64,000 bases of DNA. Source: Nitrosopumilaceae archaeon. GTDB lineage: Archaea; Thermoproteota; Nitrososphaeria; Nitrososphaerales; Nitrosopumilaceae. The notes below the pieces were generated by a model. The model did not search any database. It worked only from the letters and a program-made list of their open reading frames with translations, and was not told the origin of the DNA. The stretch is taken from NCBI GenBank assembly GCA_965200155.1, contig CBDATR010000010.1:288001-352000 (forward strand), read 5' to 3'. Of this stretch, positions 31-57,796 are shown piece by piece (positions within the stretch are counted from its first letter, which is position 1; every line of letters starts with the position of its first letter). The position numbers and the translations under genes were made by a program.

Positions 31-140
31 AATGCCGAACGCTGGAACAGTTACTCCCAGTGAATCCTTATGCCATGATTGACAGTAACAGCCCATGTTG
101 CTTCAATGCCGAACGCTGGAACAGTTACTCCCAGTGAATC
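31..140. repeat. 36-bp direct repeat flanking a 38-bp insert (repeat-spacer-repeat unit 1)
   Basis: aatgccgaacgctggaacagttactcccagtgaatc is identical at 31-66 and 105-140. Confidence 0.9.
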
Positions 141-208
141 TATGGAGTATAAATCACGATTGCGCTCCGACAGGTGTTTTAAAATTAGGGAGTGGTAGGA
201 TTAGTCCT

Positions 209-1528
209 ATGGAGGTATCGGCTAGGGAAAAATACGAAGAGGTATTCTCCCGTATTCAGGATCACCACAAATGGTTTGCCCAGTCCATACCCCTCATAGC
301 TAGCGAGAACGTACCCAGTCCGGCCGTGCGGGAGGCCATAATCTCGGATTTTGGTAACAGGTATGCAGAGGGTTGGCCCGGGGAGAGGGTGTATGCGGGA
401 TGCACGTATATCGATGAGGTGGAGATAGAGTGTATGAAGCTGGCGCAGAGGCTGTATGATGCAGAGTTTGTGGATGTGAGGCCCATATCAGGAGTGGTTG
501 CAAACTTGGTGGTCTATTCGGCGTTTACCAAGGCAGGGAACACATTACTGGCACCATCCATACCCGCGGGAGGGCACATATCCCACGGAAAACGCGAGCA
601 TTCCGGAACCGCAGGGTTGGTACACGGGCTGGATGTGAAATTCTATCCGTTTGATCCTAAAGAGATGAACATTGATGTGGATAAGACAAAGAGTATGATA
701 GAAAAGACGGTCGCATCCGGCGACACCCCAAAAATGGCAATGTTTGGCGGATCACTATTCTTGTTCCCCCACCCCCTGCGGGAACTGGCAGATTTTCTAA
801 AATCACACGGCATGCATATCAATTATGATGCCGCCCATGTAGCGGGGTTAATCGCGGGAGGGGAGTTTCAGGATCCACTAAGAGAGGGAACGGACACCAT
901 GACTATGAGTACCCACAAGACCCTTTTTGGTCCCCAGGGTGGCATAGTAATAGGCAACCATGACAACCAGGAGGCCATAAAAAAGGCCACCTTCCCGGGC
1001 ATGACCAGCAGCCACCACATACACCACATGGCCGCCAAGGCCATAGCATTCGCTGAAGCCTTGGAGTTTGGCAGGTCCTACGCAAAGCAGACCATAACAA
1101 ACGCCCAGGCACTGGCAGAGGCGCTGGTGGAGAGAGGCTTCAAGGTACTGGGCGAGAACCACAACTACACCAAGTCACACCAGGTAGCGGTGGATGTTCT
1201 GGAGTACTCTGACGGCGGCCAGGTAGAGGCCCAGTTGGAGAAGGCCAACATAATAGTGAACAGGCAGCTCATACCGGGCGACATAAAGATGGGTCGAAAC
1301 TATTTCCATCCCGGCGGCATACGGCTGGGAGTCTCCGAGGTCACAAGATTGGGAATGCGTAAAGACCAGATGCTGCAGATAGCCGATCTCATCAAAGAGG
1401 TAATAATAGAACACAAAGATCCAGTCCGGACAAAAGAGAAGGTCTCAGAGCTCCGCAGAGACTTTCAGAAGGTGCATTACTGCTTTGATGCCAAGACAGG
1501 GGCTTACGAGTACATCAAGCTCCGGTAA
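209..1528 (+). CDS. glyA: Serine hydroxymethyltransferase
   Basis: LIASEN, RYAEGWPGERVY and STHKT PLP-lysine motifs; start moved to ATG 209. Confidence 0.95.
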   Translation: MEVSAREKYEEVFSRIQDHHKWFAQSIPLIASENVPSPAVREAIISDFGNRYAEGWPGERVYAGCTYIDEVEIECMKLAQRLYDAEFVDVRPISGVVANLVVYSAFTKAGNTLLAPSIPAGGHISHGKREHSGTAGLVHGLDVKFYPFDPKEMNIDVDKTKSMIEKTVASGDTPKMAMFGGSLFLFPHPLRELADFLKSHGMHINYDAAHVAGLIAGGEFQDPLREGTDTMTMSTHKTLFGPQGGIVIGNHDNQEAIKKATFPGMTSSHHIHHMAAKAIAFAEALEFGRSYAKQTITNAQALAEALVERGFKVLGENHNYTKSHQVAVDVLEYSDGGQVEAQLEKANIIVNRQLIPGDIKMGRNYFHPGGIRLGVSEVTRLGMRKDQMLQIADLIKEVIIEHKDPVRTKEKVSELRRDFQKVHYCFDAKTGAYEYIKLR

Positions 1529-1590
1529 AAGCTGGCGCGACCCACTGCAAGCCATTCATCTAATATAGAGAAGGCTCCGTTGTTGTTCTG

Positions 1591-2103
1591 ATGCGAGTCT
1601 TTGTGGCAGTAGAGATAAACCGGCAGGACCTGTTGGAGCGGATAAATTCACTTCAGACAGGATGGGACGGCAAGGCGGTAGAACCCCATAACATGCACTT
1701 TACGCTGCGATTTCTGGGAGAGACTCCCACCCCAAGGGTACAGGAAATTGTTAATGCCCTGAAAACTGTACGGTTTGAATCCTTTGCTGTGACCATACGC
1801 GGGATAGGCGCCTTCAAGAACCGGCAGCAGACAGTAGTATGGGCGGGAACGGATGCCAAAAGCGGGCGCCTTCTGGAAGGCCTTGCTCGCAAGGTGGACG
1901 AGTCACTGGGATTGGTCCGGGACAGGCCATTCAAGCCCCACCTTACCCTGAAAAGGATACGGAGGGGCACGATACCGGATCTGGAAGGACTCACAGACAC
2001 AGTATGGGGAACACAGAATGTGAATGTGATTAAACTCAAGAAGAGTGTACTGACAAGGACAGGGCCCATCTACACCGATGTGGTAGAGGTAGGGGCATGT
2101 TGA
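1591..2103 (+). CDS. thpR: RNA 2',3'-cyclic phosphodiesterase (2'-5' RNA ligase family)
   Basis: MRVFVAVE start; two HxT motifs (HFTLRFLGE, PHLTL). Confidence 0.9.
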   Translation: MRVFVAVEINRQDLLERINSLQTGWDGKAVEPHNMHFTLRFLGETPTPRVQEIVNALKTVRFESFAVTIRGIGAFKNRQQTVVWAGTDAKSGRLLEGLARKVDESLGLVRDRPFKPHLTLKRIRRGTIPDLEGLTDTVWGTQNVNVIKLKKSVLTRTGPIYTDVVEVGAC

Positions 2104-3398
2104 TACAGGATGAGCTGATGCACATAGTCCCGTCTGTCGAGGAGAAAAGCCGGAAGCGGGACACTGCACTCAAGATATTGCGCCTGGTCAGGGAGGAAAT
2201 TGCAATGCGACCAACCATTATTGACGCGGAGCTGGGGGGCTCCTATGCCAAGGGGACCTGGCTTAGCGGGGCAGACATTGACGTGTTTGTGCGTTTTGAT
2301 CGAAGTGTTCCGGATAATATATTCAGGGAGACATCCATAGAGGTAGGCTTTGCCGCAATGAGGGAGTATGGACCATACCGGCGATATGCGGACCATCCCT
2401 ATGTGGAGGCTGCGGTGGACGGAACTGTTGTGAACGTGGTACCATTCTATGATGTAGAGTTGGGAAACTGGATAAGCGCCGCGGATCGCTCACCATATCA
2501 CACTACATACATGCAAAAGCACCTCACCGAGGCCATGAGAAACGAGGTACGCCTGCTCAAGAAGTTTCTCAAGGTACATGACATATACGGCGCCCAGACA
2601 GAGAAGGGCGGGTTCAGCGGGTATGCCGCGGAATCGTTGGTATTGTATTGTGGCGGATTTACAGCGGTGATGGAAACCATCGCTAGGGCGGAGAACGGCT
2701 CCGTACTGGGCCAGGGTGCCAGGAAATTCCAGACCCCCATAACTATACTGGATCCCATAGATAACAACCGTAACCTGGCTGCAGCCATATCCAACAGGAA
2801 TATGGGCATATTCATGATGGCTTGTAAGGCGTTTCAGGAAAGGCTCTCAGGATCGGCGCTCAGTCCCCGGGAGTACCATCCCAAAGTCGACTGGGACTGT
2901 GTGGTAGCGGCGGCATTTCCATACACGGCAAGGAGTCCGGAGATAATATGGGGGCAGGCCAAGAGCGCCACAGTGGCCATGGCACGCCAGTTGAACAAGA
3001 GTGGATTTCATATTACAAGATACCACACGGTGGTCGATGACCATACCGTTTACTCGCTATTCCTGCCTGAGTCAATGAATATACCGCCAAGATACACAAG
3101 GAGCGGACCTAGTGTGTTCCGGCACAGTAGCGCCGCCAAGTTTGTGGAGGCAAACCGGGACAGTCTGGTGTGGGTGACAGATAACATGGACTTGGCGTCC
3201 CTAAAGGACAGGACACACACGGACATATACTCACTGCTACGATGGCTACTCTCCAACCCGAAAAAAACAGGCATACCGGCAGGCATACACAGAGACATAG
3301 AAGATTACAGGGTCATCACCGGCCCTTGTCTGAGCGGAGAGGTAAAGGACAAAGCCCTGAGTATTTTATCGACGGATCACATAGATCCGGCCGCCTAG
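2097..3398 (+). CDS. cca: Archaeal CCA-adding tRNA nucleotidyltransferase
   Basis: GSYAKGTWL..DIDVF, HPYV, SAADRSPYHT, GGFSGY motifs. Confidence 0.95.
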   Translation: MLIQDELMHIVPSVEEKSRKRDTALKILRLVREEIAMRPTIIDAELGGSYAKGTWLSGADIDVFVRFDRSVPDNIFRETSIEVGFAAMREYGPYRRYADHPYVEAAVDGTVVNVVPFYDVELGNWISAADRSPYHTTYMQKHLTEAMRNEVRLLKKFLKVHDIYGAQTEKGGFSGYAAESLVLYCGGFTAVMETIARAENGSVLGQGARKFQTPITILDPIDNNRNLAAAISNRNMGIFMMACKAFQERLSGSALSPREYHPKVDWDCVVAAAFPYTARSPEIIWGQAKSATVAMARQLNKSGFHITRYHTVVDDHTVYSLFLPESMNIPPRYTRSGPSVFRHSSAAKFVEANRDSLVWVTDNMDLASLKDRTHTDIYSLLRWLLSNPKKTGIPAGIHRDIEDYRVITGPCLSGEVKDKALSILSTDHIDPAA

Positions 3399-3428
3399 AA
3401 ATAAATCCGCTTCAAACTGACAGATTCG

Positions 3429-4178
3429 GTGGAAGGCATACCGGTAAACGAACTGGTTGTAGAACCATACCTGACGGTATTGGGGTATCCCCATGCCACA
3501 CCTGACTGCATCGAGTCCATACTTGAAGACATGACAGGACTGGGAGTAAGAGCAGTATCGTTTGTGGGAGAGACGAGACTGAACGGCGTCAATGTACTGG
3601 GCAAGGGAGTTGCGGGCGTTGTGGTGCTGGTGCATACCCCACATGGTCAGGCAGCGCTCAAGATAAGGAGGAGTGATTCGCCTCGGGACAGTATGTATGA
3701 GGAGGGAAGTCATTTGGGTTACGCCAACCGGTTCGGGATAGGGCCCAGATTAATGGGACAGACAAGGGAGTGTATTGTAATGGAGTATTTGAGGGGGACA
3801 GACATAGGACTGTGGTTGCGCGGACTGGGCACAGACGATGAGGATACGCTCAAGGATGTAATGCGAACCATATTGTATGACTGTCATACGCTGGATCGCG
3901 CAAACCTAGACCACGGAGAGGTGGGCCACATTTCAAGACACGTAATTGTGGGAGAGAGGGCAACCATTGTAGATTTTGAGAGTGCTAGTAGACACCGACG
4001 CGCCACCAATGTACTGGCTGCCACGCAGGGCCTATATCTAGGAGGACTTTCCAGGTATGTTGATCGGGTATACAAAATACCGCCCCGGAACAAGACCATC
4101 CAGGTACTGCAGGAGCACAAAAAAAGACACACAAACGAATCCTTTGAGGAAATACTGCGCGTGTTACATTTGATATAA
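3429..4178 (+). CDS. Archaeal RIO-like Ser/Thr protein kinase
   Basis: LGKGVAGVV loop, ALKIRR, DHGE, IVDFESAS. Confidence 0.8.
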   Translation: MEGIPVNELVVEPYLTVLGYPHATPDCIESILEDMTGLGVRAVSFVGETRLNGVNVLGKGVAGVVVLVHTPHGQAALKIRRSDSPRDSMYEEGSHLGYANRFGIGPRLMGQTRECIVMEYLRGTDIGLWLRGLGTDDEDTLKDVMRTILYDCHTLDRANLDHGEVGHISRHVIVGERATIVDFESASRHRRATNVLAATQGLYLGGLSRYVDRVYKIPPRNKTIQVLQEHKKRHTNESFEEILRVLHLI

Positions 4179-4252
4179 TGGGACCGGTGAGATTCGAACT
4201 CACGACCTCTAACACCCCAGGTTAGCATCATGCCAAGCTAGACGACGGTCCC
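4179..4252 (-). tRNA. tRNA-Pro (GGG)
   Basis: Reverse complement GGGACCG...CTAAC-CTGGGGT-GTTAG...GTTCGAATC...CGGTCCCA folds to a cloverleaf with GGG anticodon. Confidence 0.93.
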
Positions 4253-4311
4253 GCGGTGTGTTCTTTTATCCTGAAATTATTAAATTATCGCCTGTCATAT
4301 GTTATCGTGTA

Positions 4312-4509
4312 ATGAAATGTTCCCTGTGTGGCCGCATATCGGGAAATGGGGATCACATAGACTGTATAGAGAAACGCCGTATAGAACTGGAGGACGAGAA
4401 TATCAAGAAAGAGGAGATGGGTCTTGGAAGCACGGAGCTGGCACCGGAGATACGTACCCTAATGGAACACATATCCACAGAGAAGGGACTAGCCAAGCCA
4501 GCCGATTAG
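4312..4509 (+). CDS. Small hypothetical protein with N-terminal CxxC...HxxC motif
   Basis: MKCSLCG...DHIDC; fits the gap between the tRNA and the next gene. Confidence 0.55.
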   Translation: MKCSLCGRISGNGDHIDCIEKRRIELEDENIKKEEMGLGSTELAPEIRTLMEHISTEKGLAKPAD

Positions 4510-5622
4510 CCGTTCCCGCTCGAATTGTATCTTTGCGTCCATGTTCTCTATGGTATAATCACTTAGGGTTGTCCTGGACTGGAAAGCGGCAACCCGTACT
4601 ATTGATGCGGTCCCCCGGCCAGACTCCATAAAGCACTCACCCACACCATCAAAGGGTTCTGGCTGATCGCCGTTGTTTATATCCTGCATGATACAGACGG
4701 CTACGGTAGCACCCTCACCCTCGGCAAAGACGCCTGCCTTGGGAACCGCGCCCGTGTCAGTAGGAAGTACTGTGATATCGCCTACGGCATATACGTTGGT
4801 CACACCCGTCCGCCCAAAGTGGTCTATCCGGATGAACGGGTTCCCGCCAGCCAGTGGTACCGCGACATGGGGCAAGGTGTGGGGGGGAACAGCCAACAAC
4901 AAATCAAAGTTCGCATCACCCCCCTCAAAGATGAGTCTACCGGGATCCACCCCCGTTACCTTACAGGAGCCATGGAATGATATGTGGTCTGCCTGTAGCA
5001 TATCCAGCACGCGCGCACTTATCTGGGGACCCGCGGCAGGCATTGTGAGAGGAGCCGGACTGTAAACATTCACACTTACATTATCCCGGGCACCGGACTC
5101 CCGCAACATTGAGGACACTATAAGAGCGGCCTCAAAGGGCGCCGGTGGACACTTGTACGGCATGCCGGTTATGGCTATGGCTACTGAGCCGGACTTTGTG
5201 TTTAGCAATCTCTCCCGTATGGAGCCGGACTGCAGTGGATCATACAGGTTCATGCCATTCTCCACCAGTCCGGGAATACTCTCTGGTGCAAGCCGGGCAC
5301 CCAATGCCACTACCAGATAGTCGTATTCCAGTGTGCCATTACTGATCTCCACAGCCCTGCGGTTGATGTCAATCTTTTTTATGTCAGCCTTAAGAAATGC
5401 TATATTCCGTTTGGTAAGGTTCCCCAGTGAGGCCACCGACTCTTCGAATGTGCGCGACCCCCGTATCATCCACAGTTTGGCAAAACCTACCATGAACCAG
5501 TCTTTTTTGTCCACTACGGTAATGCGCACCTGCGAGGAGGCAAGACTGTCTCTTATTGTAGTAGCAACAGAGAGACCGCCAAAACCGCCGCCCAGTATCA
5601 CTACGTGGGGCGTCCCGGCCAT
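4489..5622 (-). CDS. FAD-dependent oxidoreductase, sulfide:quinone oxidoreductase/FCSD family
   Basis: GGGFGG Rossmann motif, YKCPPAPFE, VYAVGD, PKAGVFA. Confidence 0.85.
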   Translation of the reverse strand: MAGTPHVVILGGGFGGLSVATTIRDSLASSQVRITVVDKKDWFMVGFAKLWMIRGSRTFEESVASLGNLTKRNIAFLKADIKKIDINRRAVEISNGTLEYDYLVVALGARLAPESIPGLVENGMNLYDPLQSGSIRERLLNTKSGSVAIAITGMPYKCPPAPFEAALIVSSMLRESGARDNVSVNVYSPAPLTMPAAGPQISARVLDMLQADHISFHGSCKVTGVDPGRLIFEGGDANFDLLLAVPPHTLPHVAVPLAGGNPFIRIDHFGRTGVTNVYAVGDITVLPTDTGAVPKAGVFAEGEGATVAVCIMQDINNGDQPEPFDGVGECFMESGRGTASIVRVAAFQSRTTLSDYTIENMDAKIQFERERLIGWLG

Positions 5623-5626
5623 GTAA

Positions 5627-6367
5627 CTATCTTTCCTGTATGGTGGGCCGTATCAGTATCTCGTTGACATTCACGTGTGGAGGAGAGTTCACCGCGTACA
5701 GTATGGCCTGGGCAATATCCTCAGACCGGAGGGACTCCATCTTTTTTGCATTCTCCACGAATCCCTGAAGCGACTCATCGGTGATTGTGTTGGTGAGCTC
5801 GGTAGCTACCACGCCGGGCTCTATACAGGAGACCCGTATGTTCTTGCGGACGCTGAGCTCCTGCCGCAGCCCCTCGCTGAATGCGGTGATCGCATGTTTG
5901 GTGGCGCAGTATACACTGCCACCAGGAAACACCAACCGACCTGCCACAGAAGACACATTAACTATGTGGCCGGACTTTGCCTCCAACATGTGAGGCAGTG
6001 CAGCAGCAGTACAATACAGAACACCCTTTATGTTTACATCAACCATGCGATCCCACTCGTCAACCTTGGTATTTTTTACAAGACTCAGTGGCATGAGACC
6101 CGCATTGTTAACCAGAATGTCAATACGGCCCCACTCCGTTATGGCCCTCTGTATGAGAGCCTCGCATTCCTGCCGTTTCGTCACATCCACCTCCTGTGTC
6201 AGTGCCACTCCTCCTTCCTGTGCTATCCTGGACTGCAGTTCCTCAAGTCGGTTGCGCCTGCGGGCACCCAAGACTACCCTTGATCCTGACCGTGCTAGCT
6301 CCAGTGCGGTGGAATAACCTATTCCACTACTGGCACCGGTTACCACGGCTACTGTATCATCGGACAT
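5627..6367 (-). CDS. Short-chain dehydrogenase/reductase
   Basis: TGASSGIG, NNAG, YCATK; start trimmed to ATG 6367. Confidence 0.92.
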   Translation of the reverse strand: MSDDTVAVVTGASSGIGYSTALELARSGSRVVLGARRRNRLEELQSRIAQEGGVALTQEVDVTKRQECEALIQRAITEWGRIDILVNNAGLMPLSLVKNTKVDEWDRMVDVNIKGVLYCTAAALPHMLEAKSGHIVNVSSVAGRLVFPGGSVYCATKHAITAFSEGLRQELSVRKNIRVSCIEPGVVATELTNTITDESLQGFVENAKKMESLRSEDIAQAILYAVNSPPHVNVNEILIRPTIQER

Positions 6368-6412
6368 GAGGTTCCGACACTCAGATGCATGTAAAAATGT
6401 TCGCCTGCCAAA

Positions 6413-20121: not shown

Positions 20122-21585
20122 TTGTTATTGCCTTATAGAAACAATGGTGGTAAGCCGCAACGACTGAGCTACACTGAAGATGATGTATTTGAGATGCTGG
20201 AACGGGATGAAATTAGGTTCATCGACATGCAGTTCAGCAGCTTGCCCGGACGGTTTCATCATACAACTATCTCCGCTACTACATTCACCAAAGAGCAGAT
20301 GCGAGACGGTCTTCCCAAACTTGATGGCTCATCTATCATTGGATTTGCAAGCATAGAAGACTCGGATCTCATAATCAAACCGGATCCAAGCACATACGCC
20401 ATAATACCATGGCTCACGGACAACAAGACCTGCAGACTAATCTGTGACGTATATTGGGGTCAGGGAAGGGGTAGGCTATCCAGGGATCCTCGGGGAATTG
20501 CGCAAAAGGCCGAGAGTTACATAAAGGAATTCGGATTTCACAGCTTCTGGGGTCCTGAGGTAGAATTCTTTGTATTTGACAAGGTACACTGGGATGTACT
20601 TACTCCCTATAAGGGTCAGTCATACTCCATTGAGTCGCAGGAGGCTCCTTGGAACCAGGAGGGATCAGGCTACCCCATGGGTCTCAAACGTGGGTATTAT
20701 CCCAGTACGCCGTCCGATACTCTTTCCCCCTTCCGTAATGATTGCGTAAACATACTTAACACAAACTTTGGCATCTTGTGTGATAATCATCATCACGAGG
20801 TAGCTACCGCGGGTCAGTGCGAGATAGACATAATGTATGACACTCTTACTAATGCCGCCGATTCGGCGCAGTCATACAAGTTTATCGTACGTAATGTAGC
20901 ACAAAAACATAACAAGGTTGCAACAATGATGCCAAAACCCATAGCCATGGATGCCGGTTCCGGCATGCATACCAACGTGAGTTTGTGGCGCAATGGAGAG
21001 AACGCTTTCTATGATGAGAACAGTCCTGATGAATTGAGCCAGGTTGCCAGATACTTTTGTGGCGGCGTGATGGGCCATGCCAAGGCACTCTCCGCAATCT
21101 GCAACCCTACCACAAACTCGTATCATAGACTGGTCCCCGGATACGAGGCACCGGCATACATCGCATGGAGCTCCAGTAACCGCTCTGCCATAGTGCGGGT
21201 TCCAAAGCATTTCAAGGGCAAGACTCACTCAACACTGAAAAGGCTGGAGTTTCGCGCCCCGGATCCCTCGGCTAACCCATATCTTGTCTTTGCAGCTGTA
21301 ACCGCTGCAGGGCTGGATGGTGTAAAGAAGAAGACGGACCCCGGCGATCCAGTACAGGAGGACATATTCAAGATGACTAAAGAGGAGCGTATACAGAGAG
21401 ATATTGGTATTCTCCCCTCAACCTTGGGTGAGGCGCTGGACTGTTTGGAGTCAGACAGTAAATTCCTAAAGCCCATCTTTACATCAGATGTAATAGAAAA
21501 ACTGATCTCGCTTGGCAAACAGGATCAACGAGAGATATCCATAAGGCCGCACCCCCACGAGTTCTATCTATATTTTGATGTATAG
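20122..21585 (+). CDS. glnA: Glutamine synthetase type I
   Basis: DGSSI, GPEVEFF, HHEVATAGQCE, KPIAMDAGSGMH, NSYHRLVPGYEAP, LEFRAPDP. Confidence 0.97.
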   Translation: MLLPYRNNGGKPQRLSYTEDDVFEMLERDEIRFIDMQFSSLPGRFHHTTISATTFTKEQMRDGLPKLDGSSIIGFASIEDSDLIIKPDPSTYAIIPWLTDNKTCRLICDVYWGQGRGRLSRDPRGIAQKAESYIKEFGFHSFWGPEVEFFVFDKVHWDVLTPYKGQSYSIESQEAPWNQEGSGYPMGLKRGYYPSTPSDTLSPFRNDCVNILNTNFGILCDNHHHEVATAGQCEIDIMYDTLTNAADSAQSYKFIVRNVAQKHNKVATMMPKPIAMDAGSGMHTNVSLWRNGENAFYDENSPDELSQVARYFCGGVMGHAKALSAICNPTTNSYHRLVPGYEAPAYIAWSSSNRSAIVRVPKHFKGKTHSTLKRLEFRAPDPSANPYLVFAAVTAAGLDGVKKKTDPGDPVQEDIFKMTKEERIQRDIGILPSTLGEALDCLESDSKFLKPIFTSDVIEKLISLGKQDQREISIRPHPHEFYLYFDV

Positions 21586-22608: not shown

Positions 22609-23451
22609 CTACGCCTGCAAAGCCTGGGGTGCGGTCCAAGCCTCGTTTATCTCCTGAAATACGCTCAGGTTATGCATAGCCGCGGTTCCTATTTGGACTG
22701 CTGTAGCGCCCACCTGCAGAAATTGAAATACGTCTTTTGCATTGCATATGCCACCACACCCCATAATGGGTATGGTATTGCCATGTCTCACTCTTATGTC
22801 ATGTATGGTTCTCAGGGCTATGGGTTTTATGGGCTTGCCTGAGAGTCCGCCGGTACCGTGACTGAGCAGTGGCCGCCCTGCATCATCCAGTGCTAGGGCA
22901 GGTACAGTGTTTATCGCCGTTATTCCGTCTATGCCAGCCTTTATTGCTACGTCGACGCCGGGCATCATGCTTGGTCCAACCTTGGCAAAGACGGGCGTGG
23001 TGTGGGCAACTTTTTTTGCCGTAGACACTATATCCTGTACTAACTTCGGATTGTCTCCTACCTCCCGACCCAGATGCTCTGCATGGGGACATGACAAGTT
23101 CAGCTCAAATCCCGCAACACCATCAAACAGGGGTATCATTTCGGCAAAATCGTCGGGGGAGGATCCCGCCATGCTCACTATTACGGGAAAACTTGGTCTT
23201 CCCAGGGCGCGGGCAAACTGGTGGGCTCCGCCATTATTCAGGCCTATGGCGTTAACATAACCGCCTCCATCCACCGGTACAAAGTTGGGCTCTGGATTGC
23301 CCTCACGCGGATTCACGGTAAGTGACTTTGTAACCGTTGCACCCGCGCCACTCTTGTATACCTCTTCTAGACTCTGTGGTGTATTTCCCCGCAGACCCGA
23401 TGCCAGGATTGCGGGCCCCTCTAGCGTCAGCGGACCTAAGTGTATGGACAT
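22609..23451 (-). CDS. pyrD: Dihydroorotate dehydrogenase (family 1)
   Basis: ASG, NAIGL, ELNLSCPH, AINT, GGLSG, GCGGI, VQIGTA. Confidence 0.92.
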   Translation of the reverse strand: MSIHLGPLTLEGPAILASGLRGNTPQSLEEVYKSGAGATVTKSLTVNPREGNPEPNFVPVDGGGYVNAIGLNNGGAHQFARALGRPSFPVIVSMAGSSPDDFAEMIPLFDGVAGFELNLSCPHAEHLGREVGDNPKLVQDIVSTAKKVAHTTPVFAKVGPSMMPGVDVAIKAGIDGITAINTVPALALDDAGRPLLSHGTGGLSGKPIKPIALRTIHDIRVRHGNTIPIMGCGGICNAKDVFQFLQVGATAVQIGTAAMHNLSVFQEINEAWTAPQALQA

Positions 23452-23531
23452 TGCCGTTAATACCACGCTTATTTACCAAATAAATCTCAAATGACTAGCG
23501 TCAGCGGACCTAAGTGTATGGACATTGCCGT
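23421..23531. repeat. 37-bp direct repeat flanking a 37-bp insert (unit 2), covering the pyrD start
   Basis: ctagcgtcagcggacctaagtgtatggacattgccgt is identical at 23421-23457 and 23495-23531. Confidence 0.9.
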
Positions 23532-23538
23532 GACTTGC

Positions 23539-24503
23539 TGTAATGTATGAAAAGTCGGTCCGCTAGTCATTGGCATCCTGCTCCATCCATTTTGCATCAT
23601 TTGCCCTAATTGTCTGGGTCGCCTTTTTATTTCTAAAGACCATGAGCGGTGTTTCGCCGTTATCTATCCAGTGAGAAGTGCAATCTTCTCCCATTGTACT
23701 AGTCTACATAATCCCGGAGACTGTCATAATGCCATATCTCATTGGACTCTTAAATAAGAGTCCCCTCGTCCTCAATCATTCCATGGAAGCGCTCCAGTTT
23801 GCCATTTGTCTGCGGGTGGTATGGTCTGGAATTGATTAGTATGATGTCTTGATTCAGCAGTTCTTCCTAGAATAGTGTGTTTCCAGTTCTTTTTGCCCTT
23901 TTATTGTCCTACGAAACACGCGCCGTTATCCGAGATGCAGGGGCGCCGAATCGTTTCATTGCCAGTCTCAGTAATAGAACGGCGTTCTCTGAGGTTGCAT
24001 GCTCAAATAGTGCCTCTCCTACTATACACCTGGATGCATCATCTATGAGATTCAGTCCCCTGAAGCGCTCATCTTTCATGACATGGCAGTGCCACATTGC
24101 ATTGGAATATTTACGCTCATAGCGTACCCACTCTGACTTTGCAGGTGATGATCCTGCCGTACCGTTCTTTTTCATTATGCGACATACTGCGCGATATATT
24201 GTAATTCTGTCTAAGCCTCTTTGCAATACGTACTACTCCGGCGGGGTCCTTGCTGTATGCTTCAGTTACCATTCGTATCCGGGTGTCGGTGATTGGTATC
24301 ATGGGCCTGCCCATCTTTACTTGAGTCGTCCCCGTTCTCTGGTTCACAATCTTCGTACGTGTCTTGTTTCAGGTCTTGAGCTATTTTGTGGAGGCAACGC
24401 CTCTTTTGTCTTGATTCCTCTGTTATTCTCTTTACCATATGGCTTGTGCAATCTGAACTACTGTACGCCGGATCCTAAGCGGACTTACTTTTCGTACTAT
24501 TGA
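23539..24503 (-). mobile_element. IS481-family element, degenerate (copy 2)
   Basis: Same ends and interior as copy 1; 15-bp flank duplication attgccgtgacttgc. Confidence 0.85.
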
Positions 24504-31223: not shown

Positions 31224-32040
31224 ACCATAAGTCCTTGCCCATGGTTTTTCGTGGCGCCGAAACCTCACACGATCGTCATCATGTTCATGTTATGTCGGAT
31301 TTCCGCCCCATGAACACAGGATGACTTGCTCCGCCTCCCGTTGCAGGATATTTCGCGCGGCATTTACGCCCGCGTGAGTATCCTGCGGACACTGGGTACA
31401 AATGAATTTGCCCCATAATGTTCGTGTTTTCTTGTCAATATTCCCATACACAAAGCATTTCTGGCTCGTGTGGTGACTGTGAGTCGAGATTAGATGGATT
31501 CCTTTCTCCTTGCACTTTTGTTCCAACTTTCTCAGGAACCCACCAACACGATTGTGTCGCATCATTCCATTAATATCGTGTTTCCGGTTGCCGCCGTGAC
31601 TGGTCATGGGTTTTAGAGAGGTTCTCGACACCGACCGAGTCCACACCGTCTGCGACTTGTTTGATGATGTGGTTCATCCGGTTCGTTGCAACGTTGCCAC
31701 CTTTCTTCCACAACCGGCGAATCTGCTTCTCTAATAGTTGCCGACTTCGACATCCAGTACCGTGATTCCCAGTGAAGATGAGGCTCTGGGCGAATCTGCT
31801 TCTCTAATAGTTGCCGACTTCGACATCCAGTACCGTGATTCCCAGTGAAGATGAGGCTCTGGGCGAATCTGCTTCTCTAATAGTTGCCGACTTCGACCCT
31901 TCAAGTGTGTGAGTCGACCCTTTAACCGGTTGATTTTTCCAGTATCTTGCGGTGCTCCATAGAATGGGAGGCTATCATTCCCGCTGAGTCGGCTGTGACT
32001 GCCAAGTGTTTGCCATCGACACCGCGATCAACGCCGGTTT
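31224..32040 (-). pseudogene. tnpB: TnpB remnant, copy 2, 5'-truncated at an IS5 element
   Basis: GVDRG RuvC-I, TSQKC, NAARNI; homologous to 6413-7067. Confidence 0.8.
31716..31897. repeat. Mini-array: three 36-bp repeats and two identical 37-bp inserts (unit 3)
   Basis: Repeats at 31716-31751, 31789-31824 and 31862-31897; single uninterrupted copy at 6543-6578. Confidence 0.92.
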
Positions 32041-34478: not shown

Positions 34479-35618
34479 GTGAGGGACATGGTGAAAAGCA
34501 ATTATGAAATATTGGGAATAGAGGAAGAGGCTACACCCAAAGATATACGTAATGCATTCCGTCGGTTGGCACTACAAGCACACTCTGACAGGGGGGGCAC
34601 CAGTACCGAGTTCATAAAGATAAAACAAGCCTATGAGGATCTAAAGGTAGGCAAGAAATATCCGGACACCCCACTAGAAAAACTTCGAAACTCGCGTGTA
34701 TTCTCTGGAGATACAGACGCAGAGATTAGGCGGAGGAACGAGGTTATAGGTCAGGAACTGAGTGCAGAGATGAGGGCAGCTCAGGAATGGGCTGGTGCAA
34801 TTTATCGCAGTGGTATAACCGGGAGCAGAATGTTTGGCTCAAAAACTATGGGAGAGATGGAGTTTGAGGTAAAAGACAACAGGACACTATTCATGAAGGG
34901 AAACTATATGGCCGGGAGTCTAAAGTATTCCGGTCCTGTATTGCTTCAAGGTAACATTTCCAGTCCATCATGGACAAACGAGTTTCGGACTAACATTGTT
35001 GTCGGTGATGGAGACTTTAAGCTTCTCAACCCCTTGGTGAATGGATACCGAATCGAGAATGGAGCCTCTATCACATCTCATACTGGCAATATTGTGATGG
35101 GTAATGTCTTTGGGAGAAAGTTTAGGGTTGAGGATCCCGGTGGGCGCGTGGGCGTATACACGATCCGGGAACACCGTACTCATCTACTGGCTCCTAGAGG
35201 GCGCGTTATCGTTGAAAATGCAGTAAACACCGTACTCCTAGAGGGTGATGTCGTAATAATTCTCAATCTGGAAGATGATGTCGTGATATCTGGACGTGAG
35301 ATTCTCATATATGGTAATAAGATGACTTACGACTGCATTATACGACTAAAGGCCGGTGGCATGATACGATTCTTTGAAACAAACTCCTTTGTGGGGCTGA
35401 GCGATGATGCTATAATAGAGTTGGATAACGGAAAACGGCTGTATCTTCGTGACATAAAGTCAAAAAAGATACACAGATTGGCTGAGGGATTGGTGACAAA
35501 TTTGGGTCAATATGACAAAAACCAAACCATGGTGGGTGGAGGTTTCTCCATAACATATGACATGCTGGATAGTGTGGCAAGGAACCCCGGTAAAAAACGC
35601 AAGATTTTTGGTGTATGA
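34479..35618 (+). CDS. J-domain (DnaJ-like) protein
   Basis: YEILGI..IRNAFRRLAL..HSD (HPD variant)..FIKIKQAYE. Confidence 0.8.
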   Translation: MRDMVKSNYEILGIEEEATPKDIRNAFRRLALQAHSDRGGTSTEFIKIKQAYEDLKVGKKYPDTPLEKLRNSRVFSGDTDAEIRRRNEVIGQELSAEMRAAQEWAGAIYRSGITGSRMFGSKTMGEMEFEVKDNRTLFMKGNYMAGSLKYSGPVLLQGNISSPSWTNEFRTNIVVGDGDFKLLNPLVNGYRIENGASITSHTGNIVMGNVFGRKFRVEDPGGRVGVYTIREHRTHLLAPRGRVIVENAVNTVLLEGDVVIILNLEDDVVISGREILIYGNKMTYDCIIRLKAGGMIRFFETNSFVGLSDDAIIELDNGKRLYLRDIKSKKIHRLAEGLVTNLGQYDKNQTMVGGGFSITYDMLDSVARNPGKKRKIFGV

Positions 35619-38756: not shown

Positions 38757-38864
38757 GGGCGCCGAATCGTTTCGTTGCCCGTCTCAGTAATATGCCATAT
38801 CCTTGTAACGAACCATGATTGGAACAAAGGGCGCCGAATCGTTTCATTGCTAGTCTCAGTAATA
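38757..38864. repeat. 36-bp duplication (3 mismatches) flanking a 36-bp insert (unit 4)
   Basis: Repeats at 38757-38792 and 38829-38864; empty site at 23941-23976. Confidence 0.9.
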
Positions 38865-51033: not shown

Positions 51034-51146
51034 GTCAAAAGACAGTAAGGCTGGCGTATATCCTGTCCCGACAGAGTACACATAACGGAGTTAATGCCAG
51101 CTAGAATGTGCGGCAGTAGTGAGCGGGAATGATTCCAGTTGGGTGC

Positions 51147-51255
51147 GGTAAATAAAGGGGCGATCATTCCCGCCCAATTAGGATAGATTACTTTGAGCCC
51201 TTTGCAAGCCTCCTGAAAGGTAAACAAAGGGGCGACCATTCCCGCCCAATGAGGA
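51147..51255. repeat. 37-bp duplication (3 mismatches) flanking a 35-bp insert (unit 5)
   Basis: ggtaaataaaggggcgatcattcccgcccaattagga vs ggtaaacaaaggggcgaccattcccgcccaatgagga. Confidence 0.85.
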
Positions 51256-51289
51256 GTGCCCACCACAACAGATTGCATACCGCCCAGAT

Positions 51290-51381
51290 GTATGAGTTCA
51301 CCTGTGTCTAAATTTACGCATAACTGATCGCGACAGTTAATGTGATTTGTGCATAAGATTCCGGAAGACGTGAACTCATAC
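51290..51381 (-). mobile_element. 92-bp MITE without TSD
   Basis: Consensus match; flanks differ. Confidence 0.92.
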
Positions 51382-51497
51382 TCAGTTCGCGCTATTTTCA
51401 TCCTGTCGCATCAGTGCTAGGATAACCATTCTCATCTATACGCAGTTAGGGGGAATGAAGTACGGGCCAAGATCATGAAAAACCTCAAGCAGCTTGG

Positions 51498-53237: not shown

Positions 53238-53615
53238 GATCTTGTGGTGGCAATGTTGAATACAAAAGTTTGGTCTATCCGTAAAAACAAACATGTTTTC
53301 GAAATTTGTTTATTCGCAAACATACTGTGTGATTAAACAAACCAATGCGAGAATTTACTGGTAGCCATTCCGGCAATCCATGTCGAGACAGCGTTCATGT
53401 CATAACATACATGTCTGATTGATCGGCAGGCTTGAGCAAGACTCCCAGAACACGCGGATACCGGAATTGCCTCATACCGATACAAGTCATATTGCCCCAG
53501 TTTGGCGCAGCAACAGGATCCCTGTGATTCTGGTCGTTGTCTGGTGTATGTGGGCAGCCGATATCATAGGTGTGGCTATTGTCTCTGCATGGCGAGACTT
53601 GAATAACTATCATAC

Positions 53616-54992
53616 GTGACATTTAATAATGATTCTTGGTTTACTGATATAGTGACCTATCAGACTACTGTGTGGACGGATTCTCCAAACATAAGCTCAT
53701 ACACCTTGGCTAACTTTCGTAGCATACCGCAGATTGCCGCATTGCCCGAAGAGAAACAGTTTGAGATGGAGGTGGTAGGTAACGTATTACCATTTAAGGC
53801 CAACAACTATGTAGTTGAGCAGCTCATAGACTGGGATAATATGTACCAAGATCCCATGTTTGTCCTTACGTTTCCGCAAAAGGGTATGTTAAAGCCGGGT
53901 CACTTTGAACAAATGGCATCCACGCTCCGGCAAGGGGCAAGCAGAAAGGAAGTGTCTGAGGTGTCTAATGAAATTAGGCTACAACTAAACCCCCATCCTG
54001 CAGGCCAGATGGAGCTTAACGTACCGCAATTGAAGGATGGTACGCGGTTATACGGCATGCAGCACAAATACAAGGAGACATGCCTATTCTTCCCCAGCCA
54101 AAGTCAGACCTGTCATGCGTATTGCAGCTTTTGCTTCCGTTGGCCACAGTTTGTAGGTATGGGTGACATGAAATTTGCCATGAAAGAGGTGGAGCAGGTC
54201 ATACAATATGTTAGGGAACACTCTGAGATATCTGACATACTATTCACCGGTGGGGACCCCATGATCATGAAGTCCTCCATATTTGCTGCGTATATAGATG
54301 CCATACTTGATGCAGCCCTTCCAAACCTGAGGACTATCCGGATAGGAACCAAGGCGTTGTCTTACTGGCCATACAAATTCCTCACGGATCCAGATGCGGA
54401 TATTCTCCTGAACACCTTTGAGAAGATCACTGCCCGGGGACTGCATTTGGCCATGATGGCACACTTTAACCACCCACGGGAAATGGAGACAACTGCCTTG
54501 GCTAGAGCTGTTAAGGCCGTGCGTCGTACTGGGGCCCAGATACGAACTCAATCGCCCCTGCTGGCACATATCAACGATGATGGGGATCTCTGGGCTGGAA
54601 TGTGGCGGAACCAAGTTCGTATGGGTTGTATTCCATACTACATGTTTGTGGTACGAGACACAGGCGCTCAACACTTTTTCGGAGTTCCGTTGGTACGCGC
54701 CTATGGCATATTTCGTCATGCATACCAGCAAGTTAGTGGCTTGGGGAGGACAGTACGTGGCCCTAGTATGTCTGCTACTCCGGGTAAAGTACAGATTGAC
54801 GGCACTCCTACAATAAATGGCCAAAAGGTGCTACAGCTTAGATTTTTGCAGGGGCGCAATCCTGACTGGGTACAGAGACCCTTCTTTGCCAAATACGATG
54901 AGAATGCAATATGGCTTGACGATCTAACACCCGCGTTTGATGATTCCTTCTTCTTTGAGGATGAAATGTCTAGGCTAAAAAAATCAAGCTAG
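53616..54992 (+). CDS. KamA-family radical SAM protein (lysine 2,3-aminomutase-like)
   Basis: HKY, CHAYCSFCFR, LFTGGDP, HFNHPRE, PYYMF. Confidence 0.88.
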   Translation: MTFNNDSWFTDIVTYQTTVWTDSPNISSYTLANFRSIPQIAALPEEKQFEMEVVGNVLPFKANNYVVEQLIDWDNMYQDPMFVLTFPQKGMLKPGHFEQMASTLRQGASRKEVSEVSNEIRLQLNPHPAGQMELNVPQLKDGTRLYGMQHKYKETCLFFPSQSQTCHAYCSFCFRWPQFVGMGDMKFAMKEVEQVIQYVREHSEISDILFTGGDPMIMKSSIFAAYIDAILDAALPNLRTIRIGTKALSYWPYKFLTDPDADILLNTFEKITARGLHLAMMAHFNHPREMETTALARAVKAVRRTGAQIRTQSPLLAHINDDGDLWAGMWRNQVRMGCIPYYMFVVRDTGAQHFFGVPLVRAYGIFRHAYQQVSGLGRTVRGPSMSATPGKVQIDGTPTINGQKVLQLRFLQGRNPDWVQRPFFAKYDENAIWLDDLTPAFDDSFFFEDEMSRLKKSS

Positions 54993-55136
54993 GCTTCCGG
55001 TTTTCCGAATATCTGTACAGATTTTTAAAGTATATCTCATCATTATACTCGCTGGGATAATGGTAGAAATCCACGCTCCCCTTTCTACATGACTCACGTA
55101 TGCTTTCTAGTACGAGATAGTAAATTACATCCTCTA

Positions 55137-55308
55137 GTGGTGATCGTTTAGGTCACTCTTTCACATACGACGCCAAGGTGGAGGCTAACTCCTGTTATTT
55201 CACTAGCATAGCATGGCGACACGGTATAGGGCTGGCGGTGGCTATTCCCTACCTGATTTTGTACCAGAAAAACACGCCTTAATTCGGAGCGACCTAAACG
55301 GTTACTAC
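55137..55308. mobile_element. Second-family MITE (~170 bp)
   Basis: 22-bp imperfect TIR gtggtgatcgtttaggtcactc / gagcgacctaaacggttactac. Confidence 0.7.
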
Positions 55309-55348
55309 ACTATGCCTATGATTTAATAGCGCCATCGGATAATTCATA

Positions 55349-55558
55349 ATGATGCGAGACAGGAAGGCGAGGGTAAAGCTTCTTGTGCTACTGGGAATAA
55401 TCTGGATTGTAGTCACGTTGCCTCTTCCTTGGGTGGTGGGAAATCCGGATGTACCTGAGACACAATTGTATAACATATTGGGCATAATAGGAATAATATC
55501 GGTCCCGTTCGTAATGCTTGCGGCAGTTTGGACCCTTAAGCCAGAGCTGACCACATAA
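55349..55558 (+). CDS. Small two-TM membrane protein
   Basis: Two hydrophobic helices; stop overlaps the next start codon. Confidence 0.7.
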   Translation: MMRDRKARVKLLVLLGIIWIVVTLPLPWVVGNPDVPETQLYNILGIIGIISVPFVMLAAVWTLKPELTT

Positions 55559-56379
55559 TGTCCGCTCCTACAATAGAAGTAGGATCGTACATGGAGACTG
55601 CCATAAAATCTGCCCGAGAGGGAGGACAAGCTATAATGGACTTGTATGACTCGGATTTAAAATATACAAGTAAAAGTGACAGTTCTCCAGTAACAAACGC
55701 TGACTTGGCCAGCAATAGTGTCATAAAGAAGGTCTTGGCAAGGACAAACATACCCGTACTCTCTGAGGAGGATGCAGACTCCGACACGCGCTTGGGCTCA
55801 GATATCATATGGGTAGTGGATCCGCTGGACGGAACACTGGATTTTCTTGAGCATACAGGTGAATTCACAGTGATGGTGGCTCTGGTACAAAACACCCGAC
55901 CAACCCTTGGCGTCATATACTGGCCGGATAATGATATACTATATGCCGCTTGGACGGGTGGTGGTGCATGGCGCCACGATAGATCCGGATGGGGCAAGAT
56001 TGGAGTGAAGAAGACCGCATCTTTACCATACTGCACTTTGGTGACCTCAAGACACCACATTACCGAGTCTGAGGAGAAATTCATTAACTCGTTGGGCTTT
56101 GGGGATAGGCGGACTCTTGGAAGTTCTTTAAAAGTTGTTGATATCTGCTCCGCCCAAGCTGATGCCTACTTTACTTTTACTGATAAAATGAAAGAGTGGG
56201 ATACCGCGGCATCATGCTGCATACTGCATGAAGCCGGTGGGAAAATGACCGATATGAATGGCAATCCCTTATTCTATAATGATGCTGATGTATTTCATCG
56301 CAATGGCATACTGGCTACCAATGGGGTAGTACATGATCACATTTTGCGCAGATATCGGGAATTACAGCAGGCTTCGTGA
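55558..56379 (+). CDS. cysQ: 3'(2'),5'-bisphosphate nucleotidase / inositol monophosphatase family
   Basis: SPVTNAD, LSEE, WVVDPLDGT, GSSLK, EWDTAA; adjacent to cysC. Confidence 0.85.
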   Translation: MSAPTIEVGSYMETAIKSAREGGQAIMDLYDSDLKYTSKSDSSPVTNADLASNSVIKKVLARTNIPVLSEEDADSDTRLGSDIIWVVDPLDGTLDFLEHTGEFTVMVALVQNTRPTLGVIYWPDNDILYAAWTGGGAWRHDRSGWGKIGVKKTASLPYCTLVTSRHHITESEEKFINSLGFGDRRTLGSSLKVVDICSAQADAYFTFTDKMKEWDTAASCCILHEAGGKMTDMNGNPLFYNDADVFHRNGILATNGVVHDHILRRYRELQQAS

Positions 56380-56877
56380 TCTCAGAAAGTCCATTACTTG
56401 ACCTGAGCTCTCCTCTAGCGTGTCTGTCTCTGTATCCAGGGTTATGTCTGGATTGTCCGGGGCCTCATATGGGTCATCTATGCCAGTAAAGCCCTTTATT
56501 TCGCCCCTGCGCGCTTTTGCGTACATTCCCTTGACATCCCTCTCTTCACATTTGGCCAAGGAACATCGTACGTAGCACTCCGCGAACTGTTCTCCAGCGT
56601 CTACCACACTACGGGCATCACTACGATTGTCTTTGTATGGTGATACAAGAGACACTACTGAAGGCACGCCGTGTTTCAGGAGAAGTTTGGCCAAATATGC
56701 GACGCGATGGTTGTGTTCATCGCGGCCTGCCTTGGAAAAGTCCTTGGGGGAGAACCATTCCCGCAATTCATCGCCGTCCAGCATGGCCAGATTTGGTATA
56801 TCCTTTTGTAGACGTCTCACAATGGTACTCTTTCCAGAACAGGGCAATCCTGTCATCCATAACACGAAAGGTTTCAC
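56362..56877 (-). CDS. cysC: Adenylyl-sulfate kinase
   Basis: WMTGLPCSGKST, LDGD, RDVKGMY, FTGIDDPYEAP. Confidence 0.95.
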   Translation of the reverse strand: MKPFVLWMTGLPCSGKSTIVRRLQKDIPNLAMLDGDELREWFSPKDFSKAGRDEHNHRVAYLAKLLLKHGVPSVVSLVSPYKDNRSDARSVVDAGEQFAECYVRCSLAKCEERDVKGMYAKARRGEIKGFTGIDDPYEAPDNPDITLDTETDTLEESSGQVMDFLRSRSLL

Positions 56878-56901
56878 AACAAGTCACAAGCATACGGCTT
56901 T

Positions 56902-57486
56902 TTATTCCTTGAGCCACTTACAACCTTCCAGATACGACAAGTCCTGTAGCATATCATTGAGTCGCGCTATGTCTACTCCTGACTCGTAAAAGTGCTCATA
57001 CATCTCCCGTTCTTCCTCCACGGTAAGCACAGACTCCTCTACAGTGTCGAAGAATTTTTCCTCCTTCTCCATATGGTCTTTTAGGTATATGGCATAGGTT
57101 CTAAGAAATCGTCCTATTGGCTCTCTGCTGTTGTGTCCTCTCTTCCACTGTTCCAGATATTTTGATATATTTGCAGATATGCGTCGTGAAAATTCATGCT
57201 CGATAAGGAGCTTGCGAATGTCCTTGTCATGTTCTCCATATCCCGCTACACAGGGAAAGTATGCATTCTCTTCTACTGCATAATGTACCGTATACAGAAA
57301 TCCGTCCATTATGCGGGTCATGCGCTCGATGTCCTCTAGTGGTATTTCATACCCATCTGCCAGTCTTTCTTGGCAGACCCAGACAATCTTTTCAAGACGC
57401 CGCAGGTGGCGGTGATCCTCCCGAAGGGCATTGGTAGCGCGCATGTTGACTGTCATACGATGAACTCCATAAGTATTTGCATACAC
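56902..57486 (-). CDS. Hemerythrin-domain protein
   Basis: EDH, HYAVEE..YFP, EHE, HMEKEE; start uncertain. Confidence 0.82.
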   Translation of the reverse strand: MYANTYGVHRMTVNMRATNALREDHRHLRRLEKIVWVCQERLADGYEIPLEDIERMTRIMDGFLYTVHYAVEENAYFPCVAGYGEHDKDIRKLLIEHEFSRRISANISKYLEQWKRGHNSREPIGRFLRTYAIYLKDHMEKEEKFFDTVEESVLTVEEEREMYEHFYESGVDIARLNDMLQDLSYLEGCKWLKE

Positions 57487-57685
57487 AAATCTTGTTTAAG
57501 CATACTAAAATTAGGTCGCACTAAGATATGACGATCATAGAACAAGTTTACGTCTTAATTAGCACACAAATCGTAACGCTGGTACTATCTGTCGTGCGTA
57601 AATTTAGACAATGGCTAACACAAATCGAGTAATGACATGTTGGCGTGCAGATTATGATATCTATCTTTCTGGTTACTGGAGCAGT

Positions 57686-57796
57686 ATTGCTGCCCCCATC
57701 TATTCGGGATGCGACATGTGGGTTGTTTTTGGCCTGCGCGGCTCTCTTTGGGCTGGCGGATTGCTGCCCCCATCTATTCGGGATGCGACATGTGGG
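57686..57796. repeat. 37-bp direct repeat flanking a 37-bp insert (unit 6)
   Basis: attgctgcccccatctattcgggatgcgacatgtggg is identical at 57686-57722 and 57760-57796. Confidence 0.92.

Follow-up and report, generated by a model that had tools for sequence, protein, structure and literature searches.

What process leaves short, unrelated inserts dispersed over an archaeal chromosome, each standing between two copies of the local sequence and all of nearly one size? The question was raised by a 64-kb stretch of DNA (C10:288001-352000, hereafter the window) of the 2.38-Mb, 51-contig metagenome-derived draft assembly (completeness 87.6%) of a sponge-associated ammonia-oxidizing archaeon. Archaeal amoA was present, and the window stretch was found in sponge-metagenome runs of three studies. 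A previous interpretation of the window from its letters alone (the sequence-only reading) had described six repeat-insert-repeat (R-I-R) loci, in which a direct repeat of local sequence (R) lies on both sides of an unrelated insert (I). Direct reading of the sequence confirmed all six, with 36–37-bp R, 35–38-bp inserts and periods of 72–74, as well as the mismatches between the repeats (three in loci 4 and 5, none in the other four). No seventh locus was detected in the 64 kb with the R-I-R scan. The insertions had been ascribed to a Cas1-like integrase that inserts short fragments, and this was supported by the geometry, the single Cas1 homologue, the empty sites, the target motif and the unrelated inserts. 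The loci are very probably the result of ectopic (off-target) spacer integration by the organism's type I-G Cas4/Cas1 fusion together with Cas2, an enzyme activity predicted from the sequence.

Geometry and polarity of the loci

The whole assembly was scanned for direct repeats (14-nt seeds extended with mismatches, copies at most 400 bp apart, isolated pairs of at least 20 bp). A period of 72–75 was found for 44 of the 150 isolated pairs (20, 15, 6 and 3 pairs, respectively) and a period of 71 for three, while every period outside 71–75 was represented by at most four pairs. The R-I-R pattern was far above chance. After application of a geometry filter and chaining of neighbours, 74 groups were obtained. 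Three were pieces of the canonical CRISPR array and five were dropped, either for lying inside a coding tandem repeat (C10 347755, 347801 and 347832, within C10 3477xx-3479xx) or for lying on low-GC contigs with internally repetitive inserts (C40 6293 and C29 837). The remaining 66 dispersed loci, 62 with two repeats and four with three, comprised 70 repeat pairs. The duplication was 36 bp long in 21 pairs and 37 bp in 32; inserts of 35, 36 and 37 bp were present in 18, 17 and 16 pairs, respectively; the period was 72 in 31 pairs and 73 in 18, with a mean of 72.7 (n = 70). The sequence-only reading had proposed a genome-wide peak in geometry as a test, and a sharp one was found at 36–37 / 72–73. 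Its density of about one insertion per 10 kb applied to the window only; the genome-wide density was approximately one per 33 kb. Five further multi-unit loci were outside the filter, namely locus 3 of the window, C9:44444-44839, C24:382917, C10:53261 and C24:472912. The locus at C9:44444-44839 contained six repeats, with one spacer present four times, followed by a different spacer. The last three loci, on our reading, appear to have 28–29-bp repeats unless a mismatch or small indel is allowed at the repeat edge.

The polarity of the events was assessed by deleting one R copy and the insert of each locus in silico and comparing the product with the rest of the genome. At many loci, which were situated in multicopy elements, the restored sequence paired without gaps with paralogous copies. 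After removal of R and I, C34 102345 matched C24:218539-218815, and C13 35858 matched C13:41249-41524, with 100% identity over 276–277 bp. Several other empty-site pairs were 97–99% identical. Four filled/empty pairs were aligned; the empty sites were without both the insert and the second R, so exactly one repeat copy and the insert had been added. Empty paralogues had been noted earlier for two loci of the window; exact empty sites were found in paralogous copies, with identities of up to 100% over 277 bp. Paralogues were used for this comparison because the relatives are too diverged: orthologous empty sites were not recovered for window 22900-23900, which among 31 genomes matched only the neighbouring multicopy element (65–88%). 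At four single-copy sites, removal of R and I also restored a long open frame, of 523 codons at C10 288031 (locus 1), 326 at C10 311421 (locus 2), 495 at C10 229607 and 407 at C10 141058. The third of these insertions cuts off the final codons of an amidohydrolase gene, and the fourth splits an Mrr-type nuclease gene.

Repeated DNA made up 31% of the 2.20 Mb of main contigs and contained 37 of the 66 loci. Sequence with a local cover of at least five other copies, 20% of the genome, contained 28 of the 66. Purifying selection acting on random insertions would leave such an enrichment. The surviving insertions are for the most part situated in repeated elements, between genes, at gene ends or in genes that are dispensable, and some units were later duplicated or moved with multicopy elements. 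Some of the loci were indeed copies of one event transported by such elements.

The location of many loci in mobile repeated DNA, and the occurrence of some as multi-unit tandem arrays of approximately 72 bp, could also be taken as signs of tandem duplication or replication slippage, or of a family of miniature inverted-repeat transposable elements (MITEs) with target-site duplications. Tandem duplication, however, gives a match as long as the period, whereas the observed match was half of the period. Slippage and MITEs also fail to account for empty sites that are without both the insert and the second R, or for inserts that are unlike their flanks and unlike each other, 32 of 70 being copies of loci elsewhere. 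There was no insert sequence in common to define a transposon family, although no formal scan of the inserts for terminal inverted repeats was made, in line with the original statement that the inserts are unrelated and do not constitute one MITE family. We consider an origin by slippage or as a MITE family hardly credible. A single CRISPR array was ruled out as well: repeats and inserts differ among the loci, and the ectopic repeats formed 50 unrelated families among the 66 loci, none of them identical to the canonical repeat.

Could the assembler or chimeric reads have made the R-I-R structures? The assembly is a metagenome-derived draft in 51 contigs, and the sole insert-spanning piece listed came from a low-depth run, X5, possibly the source data. 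Evidence from public runs consisted of Logan contigs (31-mer unitigs) only. Contigs of X1, X6 and X7 (two other studies, depth 40–100) ended at window 23450 in locus 2. Contigs of X1 and X6 also ended at 31745 in locus 3, where no piece of X7 was among those listed. Both ends are located exactly 30 nt into the first repeat copy, where a unitig would end because the first 31-mer of a duplicated R has a second predecessor, supplied by the end of the insert. The pieces of X5 (23209-23450, 23428-23524, 23495-23531 and 23502-24448) were exactly the unitigs expected of R-I-R, and among the 15 of 141 rows listed there was no joint that skips R and I, as an empty allele would. The sequence-only reading had proposed confirmation in raw reads. 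The contig breaks in X1, X6 and X7 are as expected for a duplicated R, and among the pieces listed, only one from X5 spans an insert. An artefact is further contradicted by inserts that are exact, fixed-length copies of distant single-copy loci and by targets that carry a specific motif, a combination produced by no assembler error known to us. Older events were recognizable from 1–4 mismatches between the repeats and 1–3 mismatches to the sources, and complete single-contig genomes of relatives carried the same structures. We therefore judge an assembly or sequencing artefact extremely unlikely. A de Bruijn artefact at k = 37 was considered separately and ruled out on account of the exact copies of distant loci and the same structures in complete relatives.

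Resident CRISPR-Cas system and target sites

The window had been described as free of cas genes; the cas locus was found on another contig, C9. Here, a canonical array of 287 repeats extended from 71011 to 92014. Its repeat is 36 nt long (ATTTCCGCAGCCTAACGGTTGCGGCCTCATTGAAGG), and its spacers are 31–43 nt long with a mode of 36 (97 of 284), resulting in a mean period of 73.0 (n = 284). Upstream of the array, a 549-aa Cas4/Cas1 fusion was encoded (NF049935, NCBIfam Cas4g/Cas1g; 710.7 bits against a cut-off of 560), followed by Cas2 (35.4 bits, over the cut-off). On the far side of the array, genes for Cas3g, a Cas3-extension protein, Csb2 and Csb1/Cas7g were present. Judged by its gene content, the system is type I-G. 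The fusion was the sole Cas1-family match in the assembly. The search for cas genes and arrays advocated by the sequence-only reading thus yielded one Cas1 homologue with Cas2 and, beside it, an array whose repeat and modal spacer are both 36 nt long.

For the target motif, both duplication boundaries were read inward in one representative (first by name) of each of the 50 repeat families, which gave 100 ends, with 16 loci dropped as family duplicates; 50,000 random 37-mers of the same genome served as the background. T was present at position 3 in 48 ends (27% in the background, p = 4e-6), G or T at position 4 in 70 (50%, p = 4e-5), C at position 5 in 39 (24%, p = 4e-4) and G or C at both positions 11 and 12 in 53 (22%, p = 3e-11). 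The target preference is two-fold symmetric (T3, K4, C5, S11-S12). The canonical repeat reads ATTTCCGCAGCC from one side and CCTTCAATGAGG from the other, with TTC at positions 3–5 and CC or GG at positions 11–12 of both ends. The target-site logo, a further proposed test, hence mirrored both ends of the canonical repeat.

The most-hit site, CTTGCGTCTACC...CATTACAAGG, fits the motif best and is situated in a multicopy element. Both this site and a second one, GGCGCC...AATAG, contained different inserts in different element copies, which argues for a sequence-directed choice of site. At one 36-bp site, present in four copies of one element, each copy had taken up an insert of its own, and another site had taken several. 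On our reading, an old event in the first element (insert of 35 nt, shortened to 29 nt in copies with a 6-nt deletion) became more widespread as the element itself multiplied. Ectopic loci were also clustered near the array, with four within the 10 kb upstream of it, compared with 0.3 expected (Poisson P = 2.6e-4). A mini-array of three repeats and two spacers (C9:70400-70587) was located at the cas4/1-cas2 junction. Its 37-bp target includes both the stop codon of cas4/1 and the TTG with which cas2 starts; the two genes are intact and now 148 bp apart.

From these features we infer the following course of events. The Cas4/1-Cas2 complex would load a 33–39-bp DNA fragment and dock where both ends of the target resemble true repeat ends (T3, G/T4, C5 and G/C at 11–12, with each strand read inward). 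It would then attack the opposite strands in two transesterifications approximately 36–37 bp apart, the span normally covered across one CRISPR repeat. Gap repair would double the intervening 36–37 bp, leaving a target copy, the insert and a second target copy.

Insert sources, related genomes and known systems

In a BLAST of the inserts against the assembly, 44 of 75 had a match, or 40 of 70 after subtraction of four from the dropped loci. Two of the 40 matches were partial and six were other copies of the insert's own R-I-R with identical flanks. The remaining 32 were independent full-length sources, of which 20 were identical to the insert, seven had one difference, two had two and three had three. 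The source was single-copy for 24 of these 32 inserts. When mapped to the genome, as had been proposed, nearly half of the inserts thus copied the organism's own DNA; at an assembly completeness of 87.6%, the fraction of 32/70 (46%) is to be read as a lower bound. Of the 24 single-copy sources, 15 were on contig C10, scattered along it between 28 kb and 479 kb, though it represents 24.5% of the genome (binomial p = 9e-5). A possible reason for this bias is that DNA ends are frequent in the region or that its copy number is higher, for example due to its position relative to the replication origin or terminus.

The array spacers had a different profile. Any match at all was found for 8 of 284, seven of them within the CRISPR array region and one at an ectopic locus on C25. 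The insert of this locus (C25:4797-4831) and the canonical spacer C9:75210-75246 have 26 nt in common, offset by 9. Since none of the spacers matched other genomic DNA, the array is without self spacers, compared with nearly half of the ectopic inserts. The ectopic inserts would be immunologically silent and yield no CRISPR RNA, because their repeats differ from the CRISPR repeat and would be missed by the Cas6-type subunit. Being silent, self-derived units could survive at ectopic sites and yet be purged from the array. Another possibility is that array spacers stem mainly from interference-coupled acquisition and ectopic ones from a side path independent of a protospacer-adjacent motif (PAM); sources without a PAM would be in keeping with this.

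Orthologues of the Cas4/Cas1 fusion (56–66% identity) were detected in 17 of 61 sampled genomes of the family (E ≤1e-10, weaker Cas1 matches counted) and in several of nine same-genus genomes. For four relatives (G071, G006, G035 and G003), 400 kb each were examined, so that the comparison with the genome under study (G000) covers five related genomes in partial samples. The Cas4/1 and array of G071 were complete, with a 36-nt repeat, at least 525 repeats and a period mode of 71. Approximately 15 R-I-R pairs were found in the 400 kb around it, and their median period was 71, compared with 72 in G000 (Mann-Whitney p = 3e-6). This relative also contained a mini-array 1.5 kb from its array, and one of its ectopic inserts matched a spacer of its own array (33/34). 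G006, of the same genus, encoded Cas4/1 with 66% identity and had a 36-nt repeat; its three ectopic loci all had a period of 72. No ectopic locus was found in the 400 kb of G035, which has a 37-repeat array, and no strict one in those of G003, which had no Cas4/1 match and one borderline pair (78/35). Per 400 kb, the two genomes whose arrays have 287 and at least 525 repeats contained approximately 12–13 loci; three were found in the genome with smaller arrays, and none in that with the 37-repeat array or in that without a Cas4/1 match. This trend across the relatives is a lead, not a statistic.

A more general proposal extends from here to sponge-associated ammonia-oxidizing archaea with type I-G systems as a group. 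In these, misdirected Cas4/1-Cas2 integration could be a continuing, lineage-wide mutational process that scales with adaptation activity, seeds new arrays (six repeats and two spacers are already present at C9:44444-44839) and hits the cas operon. The footprint would amount to a fossil record, free of selection, of how naive spacers are captured, with the cell's own chromosome as the main and regionally biased source. The array would not show this record, because self-targeting spacers in it would be lethal. We regard the chances for and against this wider proposal as evenly balanced.

A ruler-based integrase unrelated to CRISPR adaptation, casposase-like or another recombinase, would have to match the array geometry by coincidence. 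The lack of a PAM at the insert sources and the modal duplication of 37 rather than 36 bp would suit such an enzyme, and its gene could be missing from the incomplete assembly. It would nevertheless leave unexplained why the targets carry a motif that matches the CRISPR repeat at both of its ends, why an insert overlaps an array spacer in G000 and is nearly identical to one in G071, and why the ectopic period shifts with the period of the resident array between these two genomes. With a single Cas1-family gene found, we consider an unrelated integrase improbable. Casposons are Cas1-family transposons that are known in this archaeal group; they are kilobases long, encode their own casposase, and have terminal inverted repeats and much shorter duplications. 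The loci would resemble them in that a Cas1-family integrase makes a target-site duplication, and differ in that no second Cas1 homologue was found. Casposons themselves were ruled out, given inserts of 30–40 bp and the single Cas1-family gene in the assembly.

Several observations weigh against ectopic integration by the type I-G system. The read support rests on contig break points, and the insert-spanning piece of X5, the only one among those listed (depth 2, possibly the assembly's source sample), has 30 letters on each side, one fewer than the 31 that would count as bridging. Ectopic duplications are most often 37 bp long and so exceed the 36-nt repeat by one base; given the mixture of 36 and 37, imperfect sequence anchors may allow the ruler a one-base slip. 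As for the proposed PAM test, no PAM-like motif was seen on either flank of the 32 self sources, although the loci were unoriented, so that a weak PAM could be hidden by the mixing of two orientations. A scan of viral contigs with the 26-mer common to the ectopic insert and the canonical spacer gave 0 matches, which left no canonical PAM to compare. Csx17/Cas8g was not found with TIGR04113 in the assembly, in a search whose control was silent in every genome. If interference were dead, autoimmune purging would fail to explain an array without self spacers. Self copies were also rarer in the relatives; of the three inserts tested in each, none had one in G006 and one did in G071.

Off-target integration as such is known. 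Overexpression of the type I-E Cas1-Cas2 of E. coli led to off-target integration and 'neo-CRISPR' loci (Nivala et al. 2018, as presented in PMC6698737, PMC7054753, PMC11788318 and 10.1101/148544), while the evidence for natural off-target integration given in that work is described as circumstantial and from two other species (10.1101/148544). The loci described here are like these neo-CRISPR loci, as far as the cited texts describe them, in their spacer-sized insert, the duplication of one repeat length at non-CRISPR sites, the resident integrase and the capacity for addition of more spacers. Unlike the overexpression system, they involve a natural archaeal type I-G system with a Cas4/Cas1 fusion, at least 66 fixed loci, 36–37-bp duplications and inserts that are self-derived in nearly half of the cases. 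For Pyrococcus furiosus Cas1-Cas2 in vitro, off-target sites are described as sharing features with the repeat, with repeat sequence and spacing setting the two points of attack (PMC6698737). In contrast to those plasmid experiments, the footprints here are chromosomal and fixed in nature, and the motif (T3, K4, C5, S11-S12) differs from the one outlined there. Three origins have been proposed for arrays that lie apart from cas genes, and off-target acquisition is among them (PMC13142298, citing Shmakov et al. 2020). Isolated or orphan arrays usually have recognizable CRISPR repeats, whereas here each locus has its own local-sequence repeat and mostly one spacer.

The mechanism is already known from the laboratory, and the weight of off-target spacer integration in nature had been an open point. 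In the open-access literature searched, there was no report of dispersed ectopic integrations at this scale in a wild genome, nor for type I-G, and the consulted portion of a comparative paper on sponge Thaumarchaeota (PMC7848895) contained none. More than 60 natural events for a Cas4/Cas1-fusion system provide an in vivo logo of integrase specificity and the length of the ruler without sequence anchors (36–37 bp). The data set also shows the spectrum of unselected prespacer sources, the contrast with a purged array and early stages of array birth. It further illustrates a cost of CRISPR adaptation, with insertions that split an Mrr-like gene, sit at the pyrD start and have come between cas1 and cas2. 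Such loci would escape ordinary CRISPR finders as well as annotation pipelines, and the same scan is applicable to all genomes.

Loci of the window and neighbouring features

Locus 1 (31-140) consists of R 31-66, a 38-bp insert at 67-104 and R 105-140, with identical 36-bp repeats. A serine hydroxymethyltransferase gene (Pfam SHMT 9e-73) follows downstream, and its likely start, with the start codon read from the sequence, is approximately 70 bp from the locus. Its insert equals C10:156134-156171 (38/38), a sequence with 52 partial matches. Locus 2 (23421-23531) has 37-bp repeats at 23421-23457 and 23495-23531 around a 37-bp insert (23458-23494), for which no second copy was found in the assembly by BLAST. 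It is situated at the 5' end of a minus-strand dihydroorotate dehydrogenase gene (DHO_dh 2e-55) whose ATG is inside the repeat, and the start-codon region was duplicated. A multicopy element begins 5–8 bp from locus 2. This element of approximately 940 bp (window 23539-24475) recurs at approximately 90 other places in the genome, and has no open reading frame longer than 108 codons and no inverted repeat of at least 14 bp. Diverged copies (65–88% identity) occurred many times in the same-genus genomes G004, G005 and G009.

At locus 3 (31716-31897), three 36-bp repeats (31716-31751, 31789-31824 and 31862-31897) enclose the same 37-bp insert twice, which Tandem Repeats Finder reported as 2.5 copies of a 73-bp unit with a 100% match. 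The insert has an exact copy at C24:59620. A single integration was probably followed by duplication of the repeat-spacer unit. Locus 4 (38757-38864; R 38757-38792, insert 38793-38828, R 38829-38864; R and I both 36 bp) is an older event, since three mismatches separate its repeats. It is part of a multicopy element with 78 contiguous empty-site paralogues, and its insert equals C10:412069-412104 (36/36). The R of locus 4 recurs with other inserts at C13 35858, C34 37402 and C34 161231, a hot spot with four different inserts in four copies.

Locus 5 (51147-51255) has 37-bp repeats with three mismatches at 51147-51183 and 51219-51255, around a 35-bp insert (51184-51218). The insert and its flanks were also present at C35:29695-29798, and because the whole R-I-R recurs on that contig, the two represent one event in two copies; C10:375549-375583 matched the insert at 34/35. 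Locus 6 (57686-57796; identical 37-bp repeats at 57686-57722 and 57760-57796, 37-bp insert at 57723-57759) is situated in single-copy DNA without a long open frame. Neither a paralogue nor a second copy of its insert was found by genome comparison and BLAST of the assembly.

Apart from the six loci, the window contained sources of inserts located elsewhere. The sequence at 3117..3150 on the minus strand (C10:291117-291150) is the source (protospacer) of the first insert in the mini-array at the cas1/cas2 junction (C9:70440-70473, 34/34). The sequence at 20550..20586, also on the minus strand (C10:308550-308586), is the source of the insert of the ectopic locus C5:96434 (37/37). On the plus strand, 34665..34698 (C10:322665-322698) is the probable source of the insert of the ectopic locus C43:103915 (94% over 34 nt).

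The flanks of the CRISPR-cas region on C9 (L002 9254-18477 and L001 12564-13913) form a defence island with a DUF1156 methyltransferase, a DUF499 protein, an SNF2/NOV_C helicase, HaeIII-type endonuclease fragments, a D12 methylase and split TnpB-like open reading frames. A DDE transposase (two open reading frames; L002 7217-8826, corresponding to C9:98716-100325) immediately precedes csb1, the place at which csx17/cas8g would be expected in a type I-G operon. In G071, the type I-G array occupies 40 kb (G071:C1:2941355-2981981) of a 3.2-Mb genome with 70% GC in the sampled 400 kb.

Other repeats were noted in the genome under study. At a local cover of at least 20 other copies, 16% of the 2.20-Mb main genome was repeated. 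No credible ectopic locus was found on the small contigs with low GC (35–42%: C2-C4, C6, C8, C14-C18, C26-C29, C32, C33, C38-C40, C44, C45, C47 and C49). These contigs contain microsatellites and satellite-like repeats and are unlike the archaeal genome with its 47% GC; they probably stem from a foreign source, either the host or some other organism. In the window, positions 58584-62093 carry near-perfect coding tandem repeats (18 bp × 54, 78 bp × 11 and 126 bp × 13) within a long open frame. The product resembles a repetitive, proline- and glutamate-rich surface-type protein, and the 78-bp repeats gave three false R-I-R calls. A second class of local direct repeats, with copies of approximately 92–100 bp that are 160–380 bp apart and have few mismatches, was observed at C5:24296, C5:24554, C34:190752, C34:118255, C46:12955, C35:6487 and C1:7811.

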